From a virus: a stretch of 64,000 nucleotides of DNA. Numbering within the stretch: position 1 is the stretch's first letter; every line of letters begins with the position of its first letter. Where the stretch lies: positions 64,001 to 128,000 of the IMG/VR virus record IMGVR_UViG_3300017991_000049. One strand, written 5' to 3'. The translations under genes and the position numbers were made by a program. A model generated the notes under the pieces. That model worked only from the letters and a program-made list of their open reading frames with translations, was not told the DNA's origin and made no database searches. Positions 13,995-57,247 of the stretch are shown here, in pieces.

Positions 13995-14804
13995 TCAGCT
14001 TCCCTCCTCTGGATCTACAGTGTAGATGATATCACCGAACTCAGCCAGCCGCAGCTCTGCACGCACGATTATGGGCACTCTGCCCAGCTCGGCAAGCGTC
14101 TGCACTTGGCCGATAACATAGCGACGATCGCTATTGGCGTCGATCCACACGTCGTTCCGATGGAGCATCGGCACGCCGACGAACGAACCGGCCAATGTGA
14201 CATCATTGACAGTACCCTTCTCCGAGCGCTTCGTGTCGTTGCCCTCGGGCGTCAGGTCGTACATCGTGTTCTCGGTGGCCTTCCAGTACCCGTCGACCTT
14301 GCCGGTGCCGTGGCAGACGGCGCAGTCGGAGTTCAGGATGCCGCCCGTGATCGGGTCGACGCAGCCGGTCTCAGTACAGGCCGTGCCGTACAGCTTGCGC
14401 TTCATCAGGTAGCCAGGAAGCCGATCAAGGCCGCGTGGCGTAAGTAGTTGCCGGCGGATGATTGCACGCGCTTGAAGCCACTGGCGCTTAGACAGGTTGC
14501 CGAGTACCTGTGCGTTCTCGCTCGTGTATGTCTCCCACGGCGTCGTGAGCACGACCCGGTACGCCGTACGCAGCGACTTGGCGTGCTGGCGCTGGCTGTC
14601 GTCGAGGGCGTAGTACGTGTTGCGCACCGACGAGCCGACGTTGGACCAGGTGCCGCCACCGTCCTGGTTGACCTGGAGCTGGAAGTCCCAAGGCAACGGA
14701 TCGAGCAGATCTTCACGTACCTCCCACGTGATGCGGGCTCCGCCGGTCATGGCGTAGTCCACATAGATCCGCTTGATGCCGTCTTCGCTCTTGGTTAGTG
14801 GCAT
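13995..14804 (-). CDS. Hypothetical protein with a CxxC zinc motif (269 aa)
   Basis: CAVCHGTGK plus an upstream cysteine pair. Its start codon is immediately preceded by the AT-rich palindromic motif. Confidence 0.55.
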   Translation of the reverse strand: MPLTKSEDGIKRIYVDYAMTGGARITWEVREDLLDPLPWDFQLQVNQDGGGTWSNVGSSVRNTYYALDDSQRQHAKSLRTAYRVVLTTPWETYTSENAQVLGNLSKRQWLQARAIIRRQLLTPRGLDRLPGYLMKRKLYGTACTETGCVDPITGGILNSDCAVCHGTGKVDGYWKATENTMYDLTPEGNDTKRSEKGTVNDVTLAGSFVGVPMLHRNDVWIDANSDRRYVIGQVQTLAELGRVPIIVRAELRLAEFGDIIYTVDPEEGS

Positions 14805-14807
14805 TGA

Positions 14808-14829
14808 ATTTTATTCATGAGATCAAAGT
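14808..14829. promoter_or_regulatory. AT-rich near-palindromic motif, site 1 (ATTTTATTCATGAGATCAAAGT), 3 nt from the start codon of 13995..14804
   Basis: A 22-bp AT-rich island in GC-rich DNA. Shares the ATTTTG-N10-CAAAAT architecture and TCATGA centre with sites 2 and 3. Confidence 0.5.
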
Positions 14830-15827: not shown

Positions 15828-17672
15828 TTACGAGGAGACGACGACATCTTGTGTATCCGGGCCGTACTCTCCCTGCTTGTAGTAAACGAAGGTGTACGTA
15901 TCGGCGTTGAGTCGGAACTCGTTCTCAAAGCGGCCGTTGGCATCGGTACGCGTCTCAGCGCGCACGTAGTTGCGCGTGCGGTTGCCGGCGTCGTAGTCGG
16001 TCTTGAGGTACGCCTGGACGGTAGCGTCGTCGACGGCCTGACCGCCATCAACGATGTAGGCCAGGTTGTCCGTGCCGCCGTAGTCATGGTCGACCGAAAT
16101 CGAGCCGACGCCACTGAAGCAGATCGATGCCCAGTTGGCGTCGCCGTGGGTAAGGATGTGCTCGTGCGCACAGCAGCAGGGCCACGTACGCGGCAAGCCA
16201 CATGTGAGTGCGGCAGTTGTGCCGTACCAGCAGTTGACGTTGACGCACGGCATACCGATACCGCATGCGGCTGTGCAGTTCCACAGCGACACATCCACTG
16301 CCGGAATACCAAATCCGGAGACCGGTCCCTGGTCCCAGCAGCAAACGTTGACGCTCGGGTATCCTCCGACGCCCTGGGCTGTCTGTGCGTACCACTTACA
16401 AACATCAGTTTGAAGAAGGTAGCAGCCCGGCGTATCTGAGGCAGACGCGCGCACCAGATAGCCAGCACATTCCACGGCGTTCACTACGACACACGGAAAG
16501 CCACCGAGGTCGCCCTCAGCGGTATTGCCGCGCCACTCTTCGACGTTGACGTTGGGCAGTCCTGAAACTGGATCGCCCGCAACGGCGACACCGTCCCAGT
16601 AGCAGACGTCGACGACCGGGACGCCGTTCGTGTTCACGGCATGCAATATCTGGCCGTTCCAGAGGCAGACGTCGGTGCACGGGAAGCCGTTGGCGCCCTT
16701 GGCTGTCGTGCCTTTCCATTCCGCCACGTCGACCTTCGGGAATCCGTTGATATCGATCGTGCCGCATACTTGTGTCGTGCGCCACTCCTTGACATTGACA
16801 TCCACAGTGCCACCGCTGGAAGTCTGCGACATGCTATCGCACTCTTTCCACTTCCATACCTGCATCATCGGCAGGGTTTTACCTGCCGCTGCGCCCGTAG
16901 CGCCGACGCTGGAACAGACATCGCCGCCGAGCCACTCGCAGACGTTGACGTTCGGAATACCGTTTGTATCGGACGCGACGAGTTGGGTCAGCCACTCCCT
17001 GACATTGACATCCACCGTACCGCCGCTGGAAGTCTGCGACATGCTCTCGCAGTTCTTCCACTTGCAGACCTGGATCATCGGCAGCGACTTACCGTTGCCA
17101 ATACCCAGTGTGCCGCACGTAGAGCAGACATCGCGGCCATTCCAGCACTCGACGTTGACCGGGATGTTCGGATTGGCCGCGAGGTTGGAGTAGCACCAGC
17201 ACGTGACGTTCACGCACGGACGGAAGCCGGTGACCAGGTTGTTGCTCTCCCACGCGCACACATTGACCATCGGCATCGCATCGCCGCCGAATGTGTGCGG
17301 CGTCATGACGTCAACACCCTGCCATTGGCAGACATTACCGGCCGGGATTTCGCGCAGCGATGAGATAATACCTATGGCGGTATCGGCGCCGTTGTCCGAC
17401 TGCAAGTGAACCTTGACATTGGTGCCACTTGGGACAGTGAATTGTTCACTGTGCATCTGGCCTTCTGCTGCGCCAAAGCTCGCCGTTGGCTCATGCAGAT
17501 GTAGCGGAACGCCAGCGACGCACACATCCATGGTCATGACATCGCCAGCCGGCGCGAGCGCTAAACAAACGACGGCCTCGTAGATCCCGTCGTCAGTTGG
17601 TGTATAACTGAGCAACTGACACCACGACGAGATATCCTTCGTCCCAGAATTACTGCAGCGTTGGATATACAT
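15828..17672 (-). CDS. Tandem-repeat protein with ~14 copies of a ~20-aa Trp/Cys repeat (614 aa; fibre or adhesin-like)
   Basis: Repeats follow the pattern G-[FIVLM]-P-x-V-[DN]-V-x-x-W-x-G, for example GFPKVDVAEWKG, GLPNVNVEEWRG and GIPAVDVSLWNC. Confidence 0.6.
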   Translation of the reverse strand: MYIQRCSNSGTKDISSWCQLLSYTPTDDGIYEAVVCLALAPAGDVMTMDVCVAGVPLHLHEPTASFGAAEGQMHSEQFTVPSGTNVKVHLQSDNGADTAIGIISSLREIPAGNVCQWQGVDVMTPHTFGGDAMPMVNVCAWESNNLVTGFRPCVNVTCWCYSNLAANPNIPVNVECWNGRDVCSTCGTLGIGNGKSLPMIQVCKWKNCESMSQTSSGGTVDVNVREWLTQLVASDTNGIPNVNVCEWLGGDVCSSVGATGAAAGKTLPMMQVWKWKECDSMSQTSSGGTVDVNVKEWRTTQVCGTIDINGFPKVDVAEWKGTTAKGANGFPCTDVCLWNGQILHAVNTNGVPVVDVCYWDGVAVAGDPVSGLPNVNVEEWRGNTAEGDLGGFPCVVVNAVECAGYLVRASASDTPGCYLLQTDVCKWYAQTAQGVGGYPSVNVCCWDQGPVSGFGIPAVDVSLWNCTAACGIGMPCVNVNCWYGTTAALTCGLPRTWPCCCAHEHILTHGDANWASICFSGVGSISVDHDYGGTDNLAYIVDGGQAVDDATVQAYLKTDYDAGNRTRNYVRAETRTDANGRFENEFRLNADTYTFVYYKQGEYGPDTQDVVVSS

Positions 17673-20026: not shown

Positions 20027-20956
20027 CTACGCGAAGTCGGCGCGCGCCAGGCCGCCGGTGTGCCCGATCGAACCGCCAAGCGTCTCGTAGGCGAAGAATT
20101 CAATCATGAATGCCTCGCGCTTGATATGCATGGTGGTGTCTTCGAGCAAGTACGACTTGCCGATGAACCGAGGGTCGCCGAAGAAGTACATCGAATCATC
20201 GGGGACCAAGTCGCGCTTGATCGTGATGATCCACTTGCAGCCCATCAGGTCGATCTCGGACCAACCGCTCTTCAGCATGTCGCCGGAGAGCGAGCCACCA
20301 GCCTCGTCGTAACCCCACTTGAGGATTTCGCGAATGGTGACGTTGTTGATCAGGACCGTGTTGACTTCGAGGTGACTCGGAGTCTTGGGCATGATCTTCA
20401 GGGCTTCCTGCACGGTATCGCGCGAAATACCGCCCCAAACGGTCTCCCACTGGGCAACGCCAGAGGTCGGCACGATTGCATTGGCGGCGCCACCGAGAGC
20501 TGTGTTGACGGCGGTGAGGAACTTGCTGTCCTCTTCCGCCAACATGTCCTTGATGGCATTGTCACTGAGCACTTGGCGGATGTCCATCTGCCAAGTGCGC
20601 AGCTCGTCGATGTCCTTGACGAAGCGCGGCGTCACGATCCGGTCGAACTGCACACGGTAGCGCGGGCCACGGATGTACACGTTGATCGGCAACGTGGCGA
20701 ACGGGATGGAGATGGCTGCCGGAGAACCAGGCTCCTTGTCCACAACGATGACCGGCTTGTCGGTGTCGACTTGGCGGTCAAGGTCGTCATTGCTGACCTG
20801 GACAGGCGGGATGATCTTCCGGTAGAAGCCGTCTTCACGCACACGGACACGGGTGAACTCGTTCACGGCGTCCAGAGCGTTTTTCTCCATCCCCGGCGTC
20901 TCGAGCTGGCTAAACAGCTCTTCGTTCAGGACTTGAACGCTTGAGGGGCTGGACAT
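20027..20956 (-). CDS. Major capsid protein candidate (~309 aa)
   Basis: Size and composition fit an HK97-like capsid protein. It follows the scaffold-like acidic protein and is followed by a strong hairpin terminator. The ORF-track start is TTG; the ATG at 20954-20956 has GGAGGTT upstream. The N-terminal motif ALDAVNEFTRVRVREDGFYRKIIP is duplicated at 52.9-53.1 kb. Confidence 0.55.
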   Translation of the reverse strand: MSSPSSVQVLNEELFSQLETPGMEKNALDAVNEFTRVRVREDGFYRKIIPPVQVSNDDLDRQVDTDKPVIVVDKEPGSPAAISIPFATLPINVYIRGPRYRVQFDRIVTPRFVKDIDELRTWQMDIRQVLSDNAIKDMLAEEDSKFLTAVNTALGGAANAIVPTSGVAQWETVWGGISRDTVQEALKIMPKTPSHLEVNTVLINNVTIREILKWGYDEAGGSLSGDMLKSGWSEIDLMGCKWIITIKRDLVPDDSMYFFGDPRFIGKSYLLEDTTMHIKREAFMIEFFAYETLGGSIGHTGGLARADFA

Positions 20957-21036
20957 CTTCAACCTCCTTGATTGGTTTTCACTTCCTATCCGTGGAAGCG
21001 ATCATTATCGGTTTATGCGACGCCTTCCTAACTGCC

Positions 21037-22183: not shown

Positions 22184-23515
22184 CTACTTGCGGCTCCGGT
22201 TGTACAGCTCCAGGACGAATCCCTTCATGTAGTCGCGGACCTTACGATCGGCACTGCCTTCCTTCGCTTCGGTGAAGGCAGCCTTGCCCGTACGCTGGAA
22301 ATCCTGGACAGCGGATGCGATCTTCTGGCCTTCCGGTTGCGCCATGGCAGCCAGCTGGGCCGGATCGATACCGAGTTCTTGCAGCGCCATGAACAGCTGC
22401 TGTAGCGCAGCCTCGTCGCCCATGCCGCCCATCTCAGGCGGAGGACCGCCCATTTCGCCGCCCATTTCCGGCGCAGGAGCGCCCATCATTTCCGGCGCGG
22501 GCGCGCCCATCTCAGGCGGAGGACCGCCCATTTCGCCGCCCATCTCAGGGGCCATCTCGGGACCTGCGCCTGCTCCCTCAGGGCCGCCGCCACCCATGGC
22601 AGCCAGAAGCTCTTCAGCGCCTGCCGGCGGCTCTTCGCCGCCTACAACGTCTCCTTCTCCTTCGCCTTCTGCGGGTGGCTCGCTACTAGGGTCCGAGCCA
22701 CCGCCTTCCTCGGTTCCGTGATCCTCGCCCTCACCAGCGCCGCTGGTGGGGTCCTCGGCCTCGCCCTCTGCCTGCTTCTTCATGGCGGAGAGTTCCTTGG
22801 CCAAGTGATCAGTGACGAGGTCGGCCTCGTGGTAGGCCTGCTTCACGACCTGCTGAATGACACCAGAAGCGATGTCGTTGAGCTTGTCGCCCAGTTCACC
22901 TGCCTCCTCGGCGGTCTTCTCACCGGCCTCGGCGGCTTCCTTGGTGTTAGGCGCTTCCGCAGGCTTCTCAGCCGGCGCGGAGAAGTGGCCGTTGGCGATG
23001 GCAGCAGTGAGTTCGTTGCCAACGTCGGCCGCACTCTTGAGCAGAGTGTCGTCGTCCATGGCCGCAACGGCGTCGGCGGAATACTTCTCGCCATAGTCGC
23101 CAGTGGCCGGGTGGGTTGTCCCACCTTGGTCGCCCTGCTTCTTGTCTCCTTCGAGCTTACCCTTGTAGTCCTCCTCGGTGGAAGGATCTTCGCCGGTAGG
23201 CTTGGCTTCGTCGACGCCTTGACCCTGCTGGGTGTCCGTGGCCTTGGGCGCGTTGCCCTCGGTGGCCTCGGGCTTCTCGTCGACGGAATCGGGGATCATG
23301 TCCTTGACACGCTTCTCGTTGTCAGCGGACTGTTCTCCCTCGCTCTTGGGCTGCAAATCGTCATCCGTCTTCTTTGACGGGTGCGAAGTGGGGCCCTCCG
23401 CACCGCCAGGATCCGGAATGCCGGTCTCGGCACTCTTCTCCTGAGCAGCGGCTTGCTTCTCGGCACCGATCTCTTCGACGAGACCAGATACGCGATCAAA
23501 AAGGCTGGTAGGCAT
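22184..23515 (-). CDS. Highly acidic Glu/Gly/Pro/Met-repeat protein (443 aa; scaffold-like)
   Basis: Tandem PEMGGEMGGPPPEMGAPAPEMMGAPAPEMGGEMGGPPPEMGG repeats with Asp/Glu-rich flanks. Sits between the 500-aa morphogenesis protein and the capsid gene. Confidence 0.55.
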   Translation of the reverse strand: MPTSLFDRVSGLVEEIGAEKQAAAQEKSAETGIPDPGGAEGPTSHPSKKTDDDLQPKSEGEQSADNEKRVKDMIPDSVDEKPEATEGNAPKATDTQQGQGVDEAKPTGEDPSTEEDYKGKLEGDKKQGDQGGTTHPATGDYGEKYSADAVAAMDDDTLLKSAADVGNELTAAIANGHFSAPAEKPAEAPNTKEAAEAGEKTAEEAGELGDKLNDIASGVIQQVVKQAYHEADLVTDHLAKELSAMKKQAEGEAEDPTSGAGEGEDHGTEEGGGSDPSSEPPAEGEGEGDVVGGEEPPAGAEELLAAMGGGGPEGAGAGPEMAPEMGGEMGGPPPEMGAPAPEMMGAPAPEMGGEMGGPPPEMGGMGDEAALQQLFMALQELGIDPAQLAAMAQPEGQKIASAVQDFQRTGKAAFTEAKEGSADRKVRDYMKGFVLELYNRSRK

Positions 23516-23618: not shown

Positions 23619-25121
23619 TTACCGAACAAAATTGGACCGTACGACCAAATCCTGCATGAATTTCGCATCAGGATCGGCCGCATGTGCTTGTAGGAAACCG
23701 AGCTGGTAGAGCGCGTAATGCTTTGCCAACTCGTCTACATTACCGGCTACAGCCACCTTGGTCATAGGCCGGCGACTGCCCAGCGGCGTCGGGTGCCGCA
23801 GCGTCGAAAGCTGCAAGCGCTGGACTACGCTCGGGCGGTCTAGCGACCATTCGGCCGCGTGTTTCAGCACCCAATGGCGCACCCGGCGTGGCGTAGGCCC
23901 GCCCGGGACGTATGGGCTGTTTCTGAGCTCCTCTTCCAGCCGCGGGTCCGTTGCCAGACGATTGTAAACGCCTGGCAGCCGGTCGGCAACTCGATCCGCG
24001 GCGGTCTTGATGCCGATGTCGTTGCCCGTCAGAAGCACTAGGAAGCTGTCTAACGGCAGCAGGCACTTCTCGTCCGACAGCGCGGTGACGACGTGCGCAA
24101 GCTTGAACGGGCCTGTGCGGACGTCTGGGGCGTCTGTACGGAGCGGCTGGACATCCGGCATGAATGACCGGTCCAGCGGCGACGGAACCTCCTCGGCGGA
24201 GATCTCGTCCTCCAGGCTGATCAGATCGCTGGCGACCTTGAGCTGGCCCACGATCTTGGGATCGGCCCAGGGGCCGTCCGCCATCAGCCACAGCGGCGGC
24301 GTCACGCCTAGCTTCTCGGCCAGATAGCCGGAGCTGCGCGTCTCGCCATACGTATCCGCAGCTGCTTTCAGCATGCCTTCGTAGTCGGCAGCGGCCTTGG
24401 CCATGCCGATCGTGTAGGCGATGCGGTCCGCCGGGCGGAAAACGTTCGAGATATCGAAGTACGACGGATTCGGGTTGAACACGCCCAGCGTCGTGCCATC
24501 GTCGAAGGTCTTGGCCAGGTTGTCCTTACAGCCGCCGTACTTGCACATCTCAGGACCGCAGTATTCTGCGCGGCTCTGCGCCTTGTTTCCGCAGCCAGAG
24601 CATTCGTCGTACGCCACACGGCATGCCATCGAAACAGGGATGTCTTCGCCGCGCGCGAGCTTCTCCATCTCTTCGTCGGCGACCAGGCCGCCGTTGCGGT
24701 CAGCAGCTTCTTTCGTACTGTTGAGCGCCACGATCAGCTCGATACGGCGCATGTCGCCGTTGTAGGCCGACGCTTTGACGATGCCACGACCCTTCTTCGG
24801 ATCCTTGTTGTCGTGGTTGCGATACCAGCGCGCGTACTTCTTGAAGGTCGGATGACACTTCTGGCACTCGGCCTCCTTGAAGCCGTCGCCGTTACGGTTG
24901 AAGCCGTAATACTCGTGCGCGCCCACGGCGATCAAATGCACCGGAACTTCACCGGGATTCAGCCGCATCGACGCCACCTTGTCGATGAATTGCACCGAAG
25001 CGCGTTTCACGAAGGCGTCCATATCGGACCCACGCAGCCCGTTACGGGCCAGCTTGATCCGCTGCGCGATCGGCTCGTGGAAGTTTTGGGAGCCGGGCGT
25101 AATGAGTTTGACGTGCGCCAT
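23619..25121 (-). CDS. Virion morphogenesis protein (500 aa; portal or prohead-protease candidate) with a Cys cluster
   Basis: Position immediately upstream of the scaffold-like and capsid genes. Cys cluster CSGCGNKAQSRAEYCGPEMCKYGGC. No family recognisable by eye. Confidence 0.5.
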   Translation of the reverse strand: MAHVKLITPGSQNFHEPIAQRIKLARNGLRGSDMDAFVKRASVQFIDKVASMRLNPGEVPVHLIAVGAHEYYGFNRNGDGFKEAECQKCHPTFKKYARWYRNHDNKDPKKGRGIVKASAYNGDMRRIELIVALNSTKEAADRNGGLVADEEMEKLARGEDIPVSMACRVAYDECSGCGNKAQSRAEYCGPEMCKYGGCKDNLAKTFDDGTTLGVFNPNPSYFDISNVFRPADRIAYTIGMAKAAADYEGMLKAAADTYGETRSSGYLAEKLGVTPPLWLMADGPWADPKIVGQLKVASDLISLEDEISAEEVPSPLDRSFMPDVQPLRTDAPDVRTGPFKLAHVVTALSDEKCLLPLDSFLVLLTGNDIGIKTAADRVADRLPGVYNRLATDPRLEEELRNSPYVPGGPTPRRVRHWVLKHAAEWSLDRPSVVQRLQLSTLRHPTPLGSRRPMTKVAVAGNVDELAKHYALYQLGFLQAHAADPDAKFMQDLVVRSNFVR

Positions 25122-28808: not shown

Positions 28809-28830
28809 ATTTTGATCTCATGAACAAAAT
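28809..28830. promoter_or_regulatory. AT-rich near-palindromic motif, site 2 (ATTTTGATCTCATGAACAAAAT), 5 nt from the ATG at 28802-28804
   Basis: Perfect 6-bp inverted arms ATTTTG/CAAAAT around ATCTCATGAA. Confidence 0.5.
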
Positions 28831-28833
28831 TGG

Positions 28834-44673: not shown

Positions 44674-44695
44674 ATTTTGATCTCATGAACAAGAT
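44674..44695. promoter_or_regulatory. AT-rich near-palindromic motif, site 3 (ATTTTGATCTCATGAACAAGAT), 3 nt from the start of 43525..44670
   Basis: 20 of 22 positions are identical to site 2. Intergenic. Confidence 0.5.
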
Positions 44696-44724
44696 TCAAC
44701 GGTTCTGATAGCTAAAAAACGGGT

Positions 44725-51609: not shown

Positions 51610-52518
51610 CTATCGCTCTGTATGGTTTGCGCCGGTCCCGTGATCGCGGATGAACGTCTCAAGTGCCTGGATGCGCTCCTCGTGTGCTTTCCCCTGATTT
51701 CCGGTAAAGCGGTCAGCAGACTTGGCATCGATGGTGCTAAGCAGCGTGTCGTATGATTTACGCAGGCTGCCGACCATTTGCTCTAGCTTTCCGCGCGCTT
51801 CGGCCCCCGCGATGAATTGTGGCCAACGGCGATCCTGCTGCTTCTCCGAAGCGCGCATGCGCGCAGAGAGTTGCGCACGGTCTGCGCGGCAATCGGCAAT
51901 ATCTTCGATTAACGCGTCCGTTGTCCTATGCAGCTTCTCGATCTCGAAGTGGTGGTCGGCCAGGCGGTCTTCTTGTCGATTGTGCCGTTCCGCGCTGACG
52001 TCGTCCAGCATACGCATCTCGCGCTGTAGCTGTGTATCGAGCCCGGCAATCTCCATCTTGCGCGTGTCGTCAATCAGGCGCATCTCGCGTTGCAGCATAG
52101 TATCGAGCTGCACGATCTCGCCCTCCATGAATTCGGCTTTCACCTGGGCGACAGCCACCTGCGTGGCCTGGGACATGCCCCAGGTGACGACGGCGATGAC
52201 AACCACCCAGATCAGTGAACAGAGTGCGACAGCGACGCCCCAGTTGATCTTTCCGCGCTCAGAAGATTTCTCGGCCTGTCTGTCGAGTCGCTGGTGTAGT
52301 TCAGAAGTGCGCTCGTCCTGGCGCCGAGCCGCTGACGCCATCATTTCGCGCGTCTCGGCGAAGCCTGTCTTGACCGTGTCAGTCAATGACGCAACTGCCT
52401 GGGACATGTTTTGCATGTCCCGTTCCAGCCCAGTGACGCGTCCTTCGAGCTTCTGCTGTTGCTGCTGTTGCTGCTCTAGCTCCGTGGTCATCGCTGCGCC
52501 TCCGTGCTGTTGATCCAT
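51610..52518 (-). CDS. Coiled-coil membrane-anchored protein with a poly-Q tract (~302 aa)
   Basis: The ORF-track start is GTG. The ATG at 52516-52518 is preceded by AGGTGAG. Single transmembrane helix (VAVALCSLIWVVVIAVVTW) and the internal repeat LDTMLQREMRLIDD / LDTQLQREMRMLDD. Confidence 0.5.
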   Translation of the reverse strand: MDQQHGGAAMTTELEQQQQQQQKLEGRVTGLERDMQNMSQAVASLTDTVKTGFAETREMMASAARRQDERTSELHQRLDRQAEKSSERGKINWGVAVALCSLIWVVVIAVVTWGMSQATQVAVAQVKAEFMEGEIVQLDTMLQREMRLIDDTRKMEIAGLDTQLQREMRMLDDVSAERHNRQEDRLADHHFEIEKLHRTTDALIEDIADCRADRAQLSARMRASEKQQDRRWPQFIAGAEARGKLEQMVGSLRKSYDTLLSTIDAKSADRFTGNQGKAHEERIQALETFIRDHGTGANHTER

Positions 52519-52533
52519 GATTCTCACCTACTT

Positions 52534-52556
52534 ACTTCCGGATCCCCTACCCGGAA
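52534..52556 (-). promoter_or_regulatory. Hairpin (CTTCCGG-N9-CCGGAAG) just upstream of the RBS of 51610..52518, at the edge of a 320-bp noncoding gap
   Basis: 7-bp inverted repeat followed on the minus strand by UAAGUAGGUGAGAAUC-AUG. Confidence 0.3.
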
Positions 52557-52847
52557 GCACCGACGGACACGCAAGTGCCGTTTCGCAGTAGACCGAAGGC
52601 CACGTCTAACTGCTCCTCCCCCACACCTCAGTAAATCTATGGCATGGTTCCGGATTCCGCTGCGCCGTCCATGACGAATTGGAATCTCCTAACCGATCAG
52701 TGGCTTGACCTGGGGCGCTACGCCGCGCCCTAAGCGGTGAGAATATGGCGGCATCGTGCCGAACTGGTGCGTCCATGCAAACCTCTGACACCAGTGTACC
52801 AAAGCGACAGCAAAGATGGGAATGTCTTTCAATGACAGCAACGGTAG

Positions 52848-53318
52848 CTAGTCCCTGAGCCGGACACGCCGCGGGCGCCGATTGTCGTTAGATTTGATGC
52901 GCTCTCCGCACAATTTTTCTGGCGTCAATTCGGCCTCGCCGGAAAGTCCATGGACGAGATGGGACGTGATTCGCGTCTCGGGCGCCTCAACCGTAGGCGG
53001 CGCCACCTGCGGAATAATGCTGCGGTAGAAGCCATCCTCGCGCACACGCGTACGTGTGAACTCGTTCACAGCGTCGACGGCCTGCTGGGTCATCTCCGGC
53101 CTGTTCAGCAGCGACCGCAGATTCGCAGCGATTACATCGGTATCGACGTCAGCTGAAGGCATATCGGTATCGATGTCAGCTGGAGGCATTGCGGATTCGG
53201 ACCTTTCGTGGGCGGCGGGATTCGACGGCTGTGAGTGGGCCGAGGTGGCCCAATGATCCCAGATTTGCCGCGCGTTTGAGTTTCTCATAGGTCTTGACCG
53301 GGATCGTGATCTGGTCAC
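52848..53318 (-). CDS. Capsid-protein N-terminal paralog or remnant (156-aa ORF; start uncertain)
   Basis: AVDAVNEFTRTRVREDGFYRSIIPQV is near-identical to the N-terminus of the 20027..20956 protein. The 27-nt tandem repeat encodes MPPADIDTD / MPSADVDTD. Confidence 0.35.
   Translation of the reverse strand: MTRSRSRSRPMRNSNARQIWDHWATSAHSQPSNPAAHERSESAMPPADIDTDMPSADVDTDVIAANLRSLLNRPEMTQQAVDAVNEFTRTRVREDGFYRSIIPQVAPPTVEAPETRITSHLVHGLSGEAELTPEKLCGERIKSNDNRRPRRVRLRD
53136..53189. repeat. 27-nt tandem direct repeat (2 copies)
   Basis: ATCGGTATCGACGTCAGCTGAAGGCAT / ATCGGTATCGATGTCAGCTGGAGGCAT. Encodes MPPADIDTD / MPSADVDTD in the 52848..53318 ORF. Confidence 0.55.
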
Positions 53319-53412
53319 CAGCGGCCGCTTCCGCGGCTAACCGCTTCTCTCGGTCCAGCTGCTCGCGACAGCAGTTGGCCATCACCACGTCTAGTCGATC
53401 TTCGTACGGCAT
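53176..53412 (-). CDS. Small hypothetical protein (78 aa)
   Basis: Complete ORF directly downstream of the RHH gene. Overlaps the upstream end of the 52848..53318 ORF, so only one of the two may be real there. Confidence 0.3.
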   Translation of the reverse strand: MPYEDRLDVVMANCCREQLDREKRLAAEAAAGDQITIPVKTYEKLKRAANLGSLGHLGPLTAVESRRPRKVRIRNASS

Positions 53413-53416
53413 ATCG

Positions 53417-53641
53417 TCACTTAGCGCCAGCAGCGACGACCTTGTCCAGGATCTCGCTCTTGATTGCCAGCTTGGCGACCGCGAGCTTGTTGGCTGACGT
53501 CTTCCGTGTCCGGGCCTCGTCCTTGAGCGCCTCGTGCAGCTTGGCCGGCATGCGTACGGTCATAACCCGAATGTCCTCGGGCTTGCCGTTTGAGCTCTCG
53601 CCAGGCAATTCGTGGATGATTTCTTTCAGTATGTCCTGCAT
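53417..53641 (-). CDS. Ribbon-helix-helix (CopG/Arc-like) DNA-binding protein (74 aa)
   Basis: RVMTVRMPAKLHEALKDEAR matches the beta-strand-plus-helix N-terminus of the RHH family. Confidence 0.5.
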   Translation of the reverse strand: MQDILKEIIHELPGESSNGKPEDIRVMTVRMPAKLHEALKDEARTRKTSANKLAVAKLAIKSEILDKVVAAGAK

Positions 53642-56849: not shown

Positions 56850-57247
56850 TCACTTCCTTTCAGTAACAGGTAGATGACGCCCACGTGGAGCGTCGTTTGG
56901 ACAAACGAACTACCGAAATACTTCCGGTGCTTGAAGAACCGGTCTCGCTGGTGTCCTTGCCAAAAGGACCCCAGCTGAGAAGTTCTTTTGGCACCACCGT
57001 ACTGCTTCAACATATCGCGCACACGCGCTCGAGAATGACCAGCTTCCAGCAATGCTGCGGCGCAGGTAAGCACCGTAGCGTCGAACAGTGACAGTAATCT
57101 TGCGCTGCCTCGACCAGCCCGTGAGGCCCGCAGGCCCTCTACGAGGTCGTGGTCGAGTGCGTAGCGCAATGTTCGCAAAGGTAGATCTGTACGTTCGGCG
57201 ATCGCCGCTAGGTCTAGCTTTTTGATCACATGATCAACTTTGGTCAC
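56846..57247 (-). CDS. Putative HTH DNA-binding protein (133 aa)
   Basis: LDLAAIAERTDLPLRTLRYALDH resembles a MerR or excisionase-like HTH. Confidence 0.4.
   Translation of the reverse strand: MTKVDHVIKKLDLAAIAERTDLPLRTLRYALDHDLVEGLRASRAGRGSARLLSLFDATVLTCAAALLEAGHSRARVRDMLKQYGGAKRTSQLGSFWQGHQRDRFFKHRKYFGSSFVQTTLHVGVIYLLLKGSE

Follow-up and report, generated by a model that had tools for sequence, protein, structure and literature searches.

A capsid N-arm copy in a small gene of a hypervariable slot in uncultured jumbo phages: a candidate mimic of a capsid-assembly contact beside a structured RNA

In the HK97-fold phage 80alpha, a C-terminal helix-and-hook of the scaffold protein binds the helix of the capsid N-arm, and CpmB of the satellite SaPI1 competes at this capsid-scaffold contact by carrying the same scaffold peptide (PMC5644958). 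The internal proteins of phage T4 form a diverse, defence-related set in which the only common feature is a capsid-targeting sequence, by which they are proposed to be loaded into proheads; in the same phage the vertex protein gp24, a paralogue of gp23, represents a second capsid-derived gene within one genome (PMC3012670).

Here we describe orf113, a small gene of an uncultured jumbo phage whose product carries a copy of the N-arm of the major capsid protein. Like CpmB, it would be a small accessory protein with a copy of a peptide from the capsid-scaffold contact, if the N-arm plays the role here that we assume for it from 80alpha. CpmB however copies the scaffold side and is encoded by a satellite which parasitises the phage and redirects the size of the helper's capsid, whereas orf113 is a gene of the phage's own and reproduces the capsid side. 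We regard the finding as a variation on known themes, namely the mimicry of interfaces and sets of variable proteins in which targeting motifs are conserved. To our knowledge, interface mimicry has so far been described only for the scaffold side and in satellites.

The T4 internal proteins IPI, IPII and IPIII resemble the family of orf113, termed orfX here, in being hypervariable small proteins encoded in a fixed slot, with only short terminal motifs in common and a link to an arms race (PMC3012670). Their targeting sequence, however, is an N-terminal peptide of about 10 residues which is cut by the prohead protease and is unlike the capsid protein, whereas the tag of orf113 would be a copy of about 50 residues of the capsid N-arm; its packaging is our proposal by analogy, and the orfX proteins have no sequence homology to the T4 internal proteins. 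Paralogues of the gp24 type keep the whole HK97 fold and build part of the shell, whereas orf113 keeps the first ~54 residues and another orfX member, p506, scattered pieces. The nearest characterised relatives of the source capsid gene are gp27 of phage G and the major capsid protein of phage Arash, at an identity of only 24–30%, and their N-termini show no detectable similarity to orf113.

orf113 and its counterpart in the capsid gene

The window analysed here is a stretch of 64,000 nucleotides (positions 64,001 to 128,000 of IMG/VR record IMGVR_UViG_3300017991_000049) with a GC content of 60%, in which the minus strand holds almost every long open reading frame. The same proteins are encoded by a public contig of 226,656 bp, so that the window belongs to a jumbo phage of about 227 kb, and orf113 is surrounded by phage genes within this contig. 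Judged by its matches, the gene at 20027–20962(−), with a probable start at ATG 20956 and a product of 309 amino acids, is a genuine major capsid protein gene of the phage G gp27/Arash family. Its product shows 30% identity to the major capsid protein of Salmonella phage Arash over 96% of its length (E=3e-33) and also matches the major head protein of Bacillus phage G (E=5e-5), the phage G gp27 structure (PDB 6wkk_A, E=1.6e-5) and PHROG 2522 (major head protein, E=5e-4). The capsid family is highly conserved and has 1717 metagenomic homologues. An AlphaFold model of the capsid protein, based on 53 sequences, predicts helices at residues 4–18 and 23–38 but has a mean pLDDT of only 52, too low for placing the N-arm on an HK97 fold.

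The 5' end of the capsid gene (20801–20956) has its counterpart in a capsid-like segment at 53004–53162(−), in which residues 10–62 of orf113 correspond to capsid residues 1–54 counted from the ATG; the core of this segment lies at 53004–53078 (VDAVNEFTRTRVREDGFYRSIIPQV). A conserved motif of orf113 reads FTRxRVREDGFYR. A preliminary description had noted a peptide nearly identical to a part of the capsid protein in the open reading frame 52848–53318(−). BLASTP indeed aligns 44 amino acids (capsid residues 11–54) at 64% identity (E=4e-15), the ungapped match lengthens in tblastx to 51 amino acids (capsid residues 2–54, numbered from ATG 20956), and the 26-mer singled out in that description agrees with the capsid at 22 of 26 residues. 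The similarity also exists at the DNA level, but the earlier figure of about 80% identity over about 100 bp was slightly high, since we find 72% over 101 nt and 78% in a core of 72 nt. The two stretches (20806–20906 and 53009–53109, aligned without gaps) rank second in length among the window's direct repeats (D2), and the capsid-like stretch is not of low complexity.

orf113 itself (52848–53189(−)) encodes 113 amino acids from ATG 53189 to the stop codon TAG at 52848–52850. It begins with the 27-nt tandem unit already reported in the preliminary description, which Tandem Repeats Finder places at 53136–53189(−) (period 27, 2.0 copies, 92% matches); the two copies are the same at 25 of 27 nt and encode MPPADIDTD and MPSADVDTD. 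An in-frame ATG opens each copy, the second of which aligns with the capsid start codon in the tblastx register. The duplication would be a recent event which doubled the start codon together with an acidic N-terminal motif. At its other end orf113 closes with an Arg-rich tail (DNRRPRRVRLRD, 52851–52886(−)), the common C-terminal motif of the orfX family, which abuts a structured RNA.

The most likely start is ATG 53189. A start at GTG 53318, which would give 156 amino acids, was rejected because the 43 codons upstream of ATG 53189 score −0.37 in that frame, i.e. as non-coding (gene mean +0.33), and because the longer frame overlaps orf78, which scores as coding and has a homologue. From ATG 53189 the overlap with the 3' end of orf78 is 14 nt, which is consistent with translational coupling, and only 4 nt lie between the stop codon of the preceding Arc-like gene and the start of orf78; orf113 is apparently co-transcribed with both genes. 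Codons 1–62 of orf113 have gene-like codon scores of +0.29 to +0.40. The score of codons 63–113 is −0.06, which is under the 5th percentile of real genes, the coding signal being weak over codons 63–101.

An assembly or sequencing artefact, such as a chimeric contig or a collapsed repeat, might be suspected since a public contig from JGI (L003) stops right at the second 27-nt copy, a sign that assemblers struggle there. The DNA of this contig is however 100% identical, the 113-aa product is encoded without any change by a contig from Logan (L006; tblastn, 100%), and public gene callers give this product as well, the identical protein being present on five contigs from JGI, Logan and ENA assemblies. 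As the same protein and DNA occur in several independent assemblies, an artefact is so improbable that it can practically be dismissed. We regard orf113 as a real, intact gene.

Neither a set of 5.8 billion clustered proteins nor a full HMMER scan of 1.84 billion cluster representatives yielded a full-length homologue of orf113. A search of IMG/VR and of metagenome contigs returned only the capsid genes of relatives (L001, L004, L005), cultured phages contained neither a match to orf113 nor a duplicate, and Pfam and PHROG searches gave no family for orf113, orf78, the L014 orfX, P0244 or P0246. AlphaFold predicts helices at residues 17–28 and 35–47 of orf113 (pLDDT 70–79) and disorder for the remainder; this predicted helix-turn-helix corresponds to the two N-terminal helices in the poor capsid model.

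The earlier suggestion of a decaying pseudogene does not agree with these data. The frame is intact and ungapped over 53 capsid-like codons, with no stop or indel from capsid Met1 to residue 54, it stays open through to the conserved tail, codons 1–62 are gene-like, and the differences to the capsid gene cluster at third codon positions. In detail, the core differences at first, second and third positions number 1, 3 and 12 against the resident capsid gene (P=8e-4), 4, 1 and 14 against the non-capsid copy in P0246 (P=4e-4) and 1, 3 and 14 in a third comparison; over the three comparisons the third-position excess has P values of 1e-4 to 8e-4.

The core is 76–78% identical to the resident capsid gene, which is no higher than its identity to the capsid genes of other phages, and among the seven capsid genes examined, the resident gene and six of relatives, nucleotide identity to the core does not exceed 80%. 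Over the same stretch the capsid genes of the close clade are 81–86% identical to each other, those of more distant clades about 70%. These values rule out a recent duplication of the resident gene, which was accordingly rejected as the recent donor. A DGR template/variable repeat pair was also rejected since the 16 core mismatches span all base types instead of being adenine-specific; the neighbouring genes that were checked include no reverse transcriptase.

Additional information comes from the motif TPG[ML]EK, which is present in 120 of 120 capsids at 71–100% identity. The three non-capsid copies (PEMTQQ, PEMEQD and PEQNQA) read P-E-x-x-Q instead, with E and Q where the capsids have G and K. 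Q at the position of the capsid K is also found in the divergent capsid-like proteins P0253, P0258 and P0260. The E/Q-type N-arm did not turn up in exact-pattern scans of IMG/VR and of the GTDB genomes. The third-position excess, the E/Q substitutions and the lack of a close donor together point to an old (or foreign) copy of the N-arm core that purifying selection has preserved outside the capsid gene. The excess could, however, predate a recent transfer and have accumulated inside a divergent capsid-like gene, which would weaken the case for a function of the copy in orf113.

The orfX family and its variable slot

The orfX family was defined in this analysis by its position in the slot, an Arg-rich tail and an acidic N-terminal motif. 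Related loci were fetched by means of the neighbouring InPase/2H protein, and the interval from the Arc-like gene to the next gene was compared. The Arc-like (ribbon-helix-helix) gene at 53417–53641(−), which bounds the variable locus upstream, matches PHROG 582 ('Arc-like repressor', E=6e-4) and shows about 80% amino-acid identity in L007, L008, L009 and L014. On the other side lies a gene for 305 amino acids (51610–52527(−)), the first one past the RNA leader, which has coiled-coil and hydrophobic, membrane-like features as judged from its sequence; its N-terminal ~100–130 residues are 52–68% identical in relatives. Searches of IMG/VR with this gene, the thymidylate kinase gene and the Arc-like gene found nothing, suggesting that the clade is poorly represented there.

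In this clade of jumbo phages of ~220–235 kb the orfX slot is fixed, following the Arc-like gene and preceding the structured RNA, and this position was confirmed for the window, L014 and L022. Its content differs. In the window the slot is occupied by orf78 and orf113, whereas L014, on a contig of 116,156 bp from a phage with a capsid apparently 96% identical to that of the window, has one intact orfX gene of 92 amino acids. L022 carries p506 with 506 amino acids, a cluster member of which lies on a contig of 220,266 bp, apparently together with a 93%-identical capsid. Only a remnant, the last ~50–90 nt of orfX, is left in L007, L008 and L009, and in L018–L021 the slot is empty, the stop codon of the Arc-like gene abutting the RNA. 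The slot thus appears to be hypervariable, with different contents in phages whose capsids are apparently 93–96% identical.

The members of the family range from 92 to 506 amino acids and have the Arg-rich C-terminal tail in common and, more weakly, the acidic N-terminal motif. The tail, NRxPRxxRxR, stands at the stop codon in orf113, orf78, the L014 orfX, P0244 and p506. The tail of orf113, NDNRRPRRVRLRD, matches that of the L014 orfX, TENRHPRLIRLR (ENRHPRLIRLR), with E=0.002 and that of orf78 (ESRRPRKVRIR) with E=5e-4; P0244 ends with ENRQPRGMRMRAR (ENRQPRGMRMR) and p506 with RTPRGVRFRE. The tail of orf78 no longer adjoins the RNA and is nevertheless conserved at the amino-acid level, so that its conservation is not merely a nucleotide constraint imposed by the RNA. 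The acidic motif PxxVDxDxxIAxxL is represented by DVDTDVIAANLRSLL in orf113, DNADQIAADIRALL in L014, PVDIDGQIASAQL in P0244 and two occurrences of PVDLDG in p506, all of which are short matches with E values of 0.06–0.7. orf113 matches the L014 orfX with E=1.5e-4 and P0244 with E=5e-18.

orf78 (53176–53412(−)) is the orthologue of the middle and the tail of the 92-aa orfX of L014, with 55% identity over 71 amino acids (E=3e-17; DNA alignment A5), and a tandem partial paralogue of orf113. Since orf78 matches the middle and tail of orfX while orf113 has the N-terminal motif and a second copy of the tail, the two genes are best read, from their alignments, as rearranged tandem paralogues of one family. 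We had also considered orf78 and orf113 as a plain foreign insertion of ~530 bp; this was dropped because L014 has an intact 92-aa orthologue. The preliminary description had listed a recombination scar among its suggestions, which is right in so far as the locus is a rearrangement hotspot with two apparently rearranged paralogues, but the core, to which no examined capsid gene comes closer than 80%, is not a recent copy from the resident gene.

Pieces of the capsid protein also occur in other non-capsid proteins. The HMMER scan of the 1.84 billion representatives recovered the N-arm motif inside P0244 (362 aa, from a cluster seen on three contigs, the longest of 78 kb) and P0246 (552 aa, locus L017), in both of which the N-arm is internal. 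The 2.5-kb contig of P0246 ends at the stop codon, short of the RNA, and the putative placement of P0244 and P0246 in the orfX slot relies mainly on the tail motif. The two proteins are 48% identical over 104 residues (E=5e-30), including the N-arm and a preceding motif, DISxVxxPADR[IV]A, that is also present at 24417–24476 in the protease-like protein of the window (500 aa, 23619–25121, with an NRNGD motif). p506 lacks the N-arm and carries instead a piece from the middle of the capsid (GGITRDTVAEALQSLP..EILRNGW against capsid residues 158–218, E=5e-5), and the same capsid-middle piece is present in P0246. By these alignments the middles of the orfX proteins are mosaics which repeatedly contain pieces derived from head proteins.

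In p506 an acidic 10-mer is duplicated in tandem (LPNPVDLDGT and LPDPVDLDGN), like the duplicated 9-mer of orf113.

Such a locus might arise without any function being selected, if a recombination hotspot pastes gene fragments by illegitimate recombination and orf113 is an accidental frame or the shrinking remnant of a capsid paralogue. Phages with apparently nearly the same capsid have wholly different genes in the slot, other phages have none or only a remnant, relatives carry genes of the Endonuclease VII type (possibly mobile homing endonucleases) nearby, and orf78 and orf113 resemble a rearranged tandem duplication with a doubled tail. In addition, the low codon score of the second half of orf113, the recent 27-nt duplication and the lack of a full-length homologue would fit with this possibility. 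Against it speaks, however, that the 53 capsid-like codons have stayed in frame and free of indels despite a nucleotide divergence of ~36%, that 12–14 of the 16–19 core differences fall at third positions, also against another non-capsid copy, that the module recurs with the same E/Q substitutions in P0244 and P0246, and that orf78 retains the amino-acid motif of the tail away from the RNA. We therefore consider neutral assembly of the locus unlikely, though a serious alternative, and with its selectively preserved copy and its membership in a fast-changing family beside a structured RNA, orf113 is more likely to mimic a contact of capsid assembly than to be an inert scar.

Possible roles of the capsid-like module

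Among the suggestions of the preliminary description, a reused scaffold-interaction module fits best. An N-arm module with the same non-capsid substitutions does exist inside the non-capsid proteins P0244 and P0246; the interaction itself is deduced from sequence and from the analogy to 80alpha. As the scaffold of 80alpha binds the helix of the capsid N-arm, the copy in orf113 would most likely bind the same kind of partner, that is, whatever the N-arm normally contacts, be it the C-terminus of the scaffold or a neighbouring capsid subunit. The scaffold protein of the phage is encoded at 22184–23515 and has VLELYNRSRK in its C-terminal part. This binding might load orf113 into assembling proheads, the N-arm serving as a portable capsid-targeting tag, and the basic tail may then bind nucleic acid. 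Alternatively, orf113 might titrate or otherwise modulate head assembly.

We put forward this role of orf113, as an N-arm mimic which is loaded into proheads or modulates their assembly, as the likeliest of the explanations considered, but as a tentative proposal that falls somewhat short of being probable. The slot is empty in several lineages and the gene is hence dispensable, no full-length homologue was found, the coding signal over codons 63–101 is weak, and the third-position excess might be older than a recent transfer. If it is true, N-arm mimicry would represent a phage-encoded form of interface mimicry on the capsid side, and it could account for the way in which variable proteins are directed to the prohead in jumbo phages, which would help in understanding injected counter-defence proteins and in the engineering of cargo loading.

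A wider version would be that the whole clade uses its own N-arm as a portable tag by which fast-evolving cargo is loaded into the prohead for injection together with the DNA, as a capsid-derived counterpart of the T4 tag, with the slot being governed by the 330-nt RNA. This extension is conceivable, but we consider it rather improbable.

Other explanations start from the variability of the slot. A hypervariable slot with conserved flanks and a small repressor-type gene resembles the layout of many counter-defence loci. orf113 might accordingly be a decoy which shows a capsid epitope early in infection and so engages or dulls a host immune sensor for the major capsid protein; an arms race would then account for the hypervariability. 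Besides the conserved flanks and the adjoining small, putatively repressor-type (Arc-like) gene, the location of the slot, which closes the nucleotide-metabolism module and lies upstream of virion-type genes, would agree with this, as would the different capsid pieces in different orfX members, and the T4 internal proteins set a precedent for variable anti-restriction proteins (PMC3012670). A capsid fragment might, on the other hand, equally well trigger such a sensor, and no sensor of this capsid family is known, which makes a decoy function improbable.

The structured RNA downstream of orf113

The preliminary description had drawn attention to a noncoding gap of 320 bp beside orf113 as unusual for this genome. 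The gap is real (52528–52847), and what makes it unusual is a conserved structured RNA of ~330 nt (52498–52855(−)), whose end lies immediately in front of the next gene's ribosome-binding site. In relatives its nucleotide identity is 77–79%, while the flanking proteins are 53–81% identical. Its alignment (A6) comprises six lineages, and the covariation support is strong across six to seven phage lineages. On this alignment RNAalifold predicts a fold of 14 helices and 83 pairs, with compensatory double changes at 27 of the pairs; 91% of the cells are paired compared to 38–45% when the partners are slid by 1–3 columns, and none of 500 shuffles matched the observed covariation.

As the last helices end just upstream of the downstream ribosome-binding site, the RNA is probably a structured leader into the next operon. 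No match was found in Rfam 15 at E≤1 for the region in the window or for four relatives, nor in cultured phages, and exact-pattern scans found nothing in IMG/VR or GTDB genomes. The covariation argues well for a new RNA without an Rfam family, a candidate regulatory RNA at an apparent boundary between replication-type and virion-type genes in this uncultured jumbo-phage clade.

The adjacency of the two elements suggests that orf113 might be an RNA-binding regulator whose Arg-rich tail binds the neighbouring RNA, comparable to the arginine-rich motif of lambda N on nut, and controls read-through or translation downstream, with the N-arm helices coupling this control to head assembly. The tail, RRPRRVRLR, indeed lies immediately upstream of the covarying RNA which ends at the ribosome-binding site of the next gene, and it is the most conserved feature of the orfX family. 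The RNA is however kept in lineages without any orfX gene (L018–L021, L007–L009) and so works without orfX, which weakens this explanation to the point of being highly improbable. In the window, nhmmer finds a single copy of the RNA (52498–52852), and the RNA is present in every related locus fetched, partially in L015.

Pieces of head proteins joined in other proteins

The gene at 23619-25121 encodes a protease-like head protein of 500 amino acids, which has an NRNGD motif, a Cys-rich segment and, at window positions 24417-24476 on the minus strand, the motif FDISNVFRPADRIA. This motif is also present in P0244 and P0246, two non-capsid proteins that carry an internal copy of the N-arm (the first ~54 residues) of the major capsid protein, and lies just upstream of that copy in each of them. 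Both proteins therefore join pieces of two head-morphogenesis proteins.

Truncated, extended and permuted capsid sequences

Among the other proteins that matched the N-arm in the profile search, many short ones (P0245, P0251, P0254, P0255, P0259, P0263, P0265 and P0274) consist of a capsid N-terminus which stops at about residues 55-70 and is followed by unrelated sequence. Some of these short matches are frameshift artefacts. The clustering of the breakpoints at about 55-70 possibly reflects an intron, or an insertion site of another kind, within this family's capsid genes. Since the query held the N-arm only, ascertainment bias is likely. In a public contig of 591 bp with a coverage of 1.4 (L002, positions 1-591; ENA ERZ4223250), a stop codon terminates a capsid N-terminus of 63 amino acids, and the gene that comes next is unrelated and, as recognised by eye, presumably DUF58-like. 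This could be either a chimeric low-coverage contig or a further example of a capsid 5' end that has been mobilised.

A second set of matches (P0256, P0257, P0260, P0268, P0269, P0272, P0279, P0280 and P0284) comprises divergent capsid-like proteins that are N-terminally extended. Judged from their sequences, these extensions (SRRDFLK...) look like twin-arginine (TAT) signal peptides, and P0284 shows a weak match to the Pfam family TAT_signal. Such a signal would be odd for a capsid protein. Fusion, permutation or internal deletion of capsid genes seems to have given rise to P0280, P0282, P0261 and P0271. In P0280 the capsid N-terminus directly continues from a capsid C-terminus, P0282 (915 aa) has long inserts between the capsid pieces, and in P0261 and P0271 (93-140 aa) the N-arm is fused straight onto the capsid C-terminus.

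Surroundings of the variable slot

What had been described as a noncoding gap holds a conserved structured RNA of ~330 nt (52498-52855, minus strand) with 14 helices, supported by covariation across six phage lineages with compensatory changes in 27 of the 83 pairs. It has no match in Rfam and is probably the leader of the downstream operon.

In three relatives, the thymidylate kinase gene that immediately precedes the Arc-like gene has Endonuclease VII-type genes next to it, either on one side or on both (L007, 2547-3164 and 3923-4477; L008, 350-946 and 1717-2259; L009, 521-1000). These are possibly homing endonucleases; the window phage has no Endonuclease VII-type gene at this position.

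Repeated elements in the window

The AT-rich 23-nt motif ATTTTGATCTCATGAACAAAATT occurs four times despite the 60% GC content of the genome, in plus orientation at 28809-28831, 44674-44696 and 57219-57241 and inverted at 14804-14827. The copies apparently lie mostly directly upstream of gene starts within short intergenic spaces, and the motif may represent a phage promoter or operator. Internal direct repeats are found in three genes of the window. The 614-aa gene contains a 103-nt pair with 86% identity (16781-16883 and 16991-17093), the scaffold-like gene contains proline/glycine/methionine-rich repeats (22423-22552), and the 305-aa gene that follows the structured RNA contains a 54-nt pair (52000-52119).
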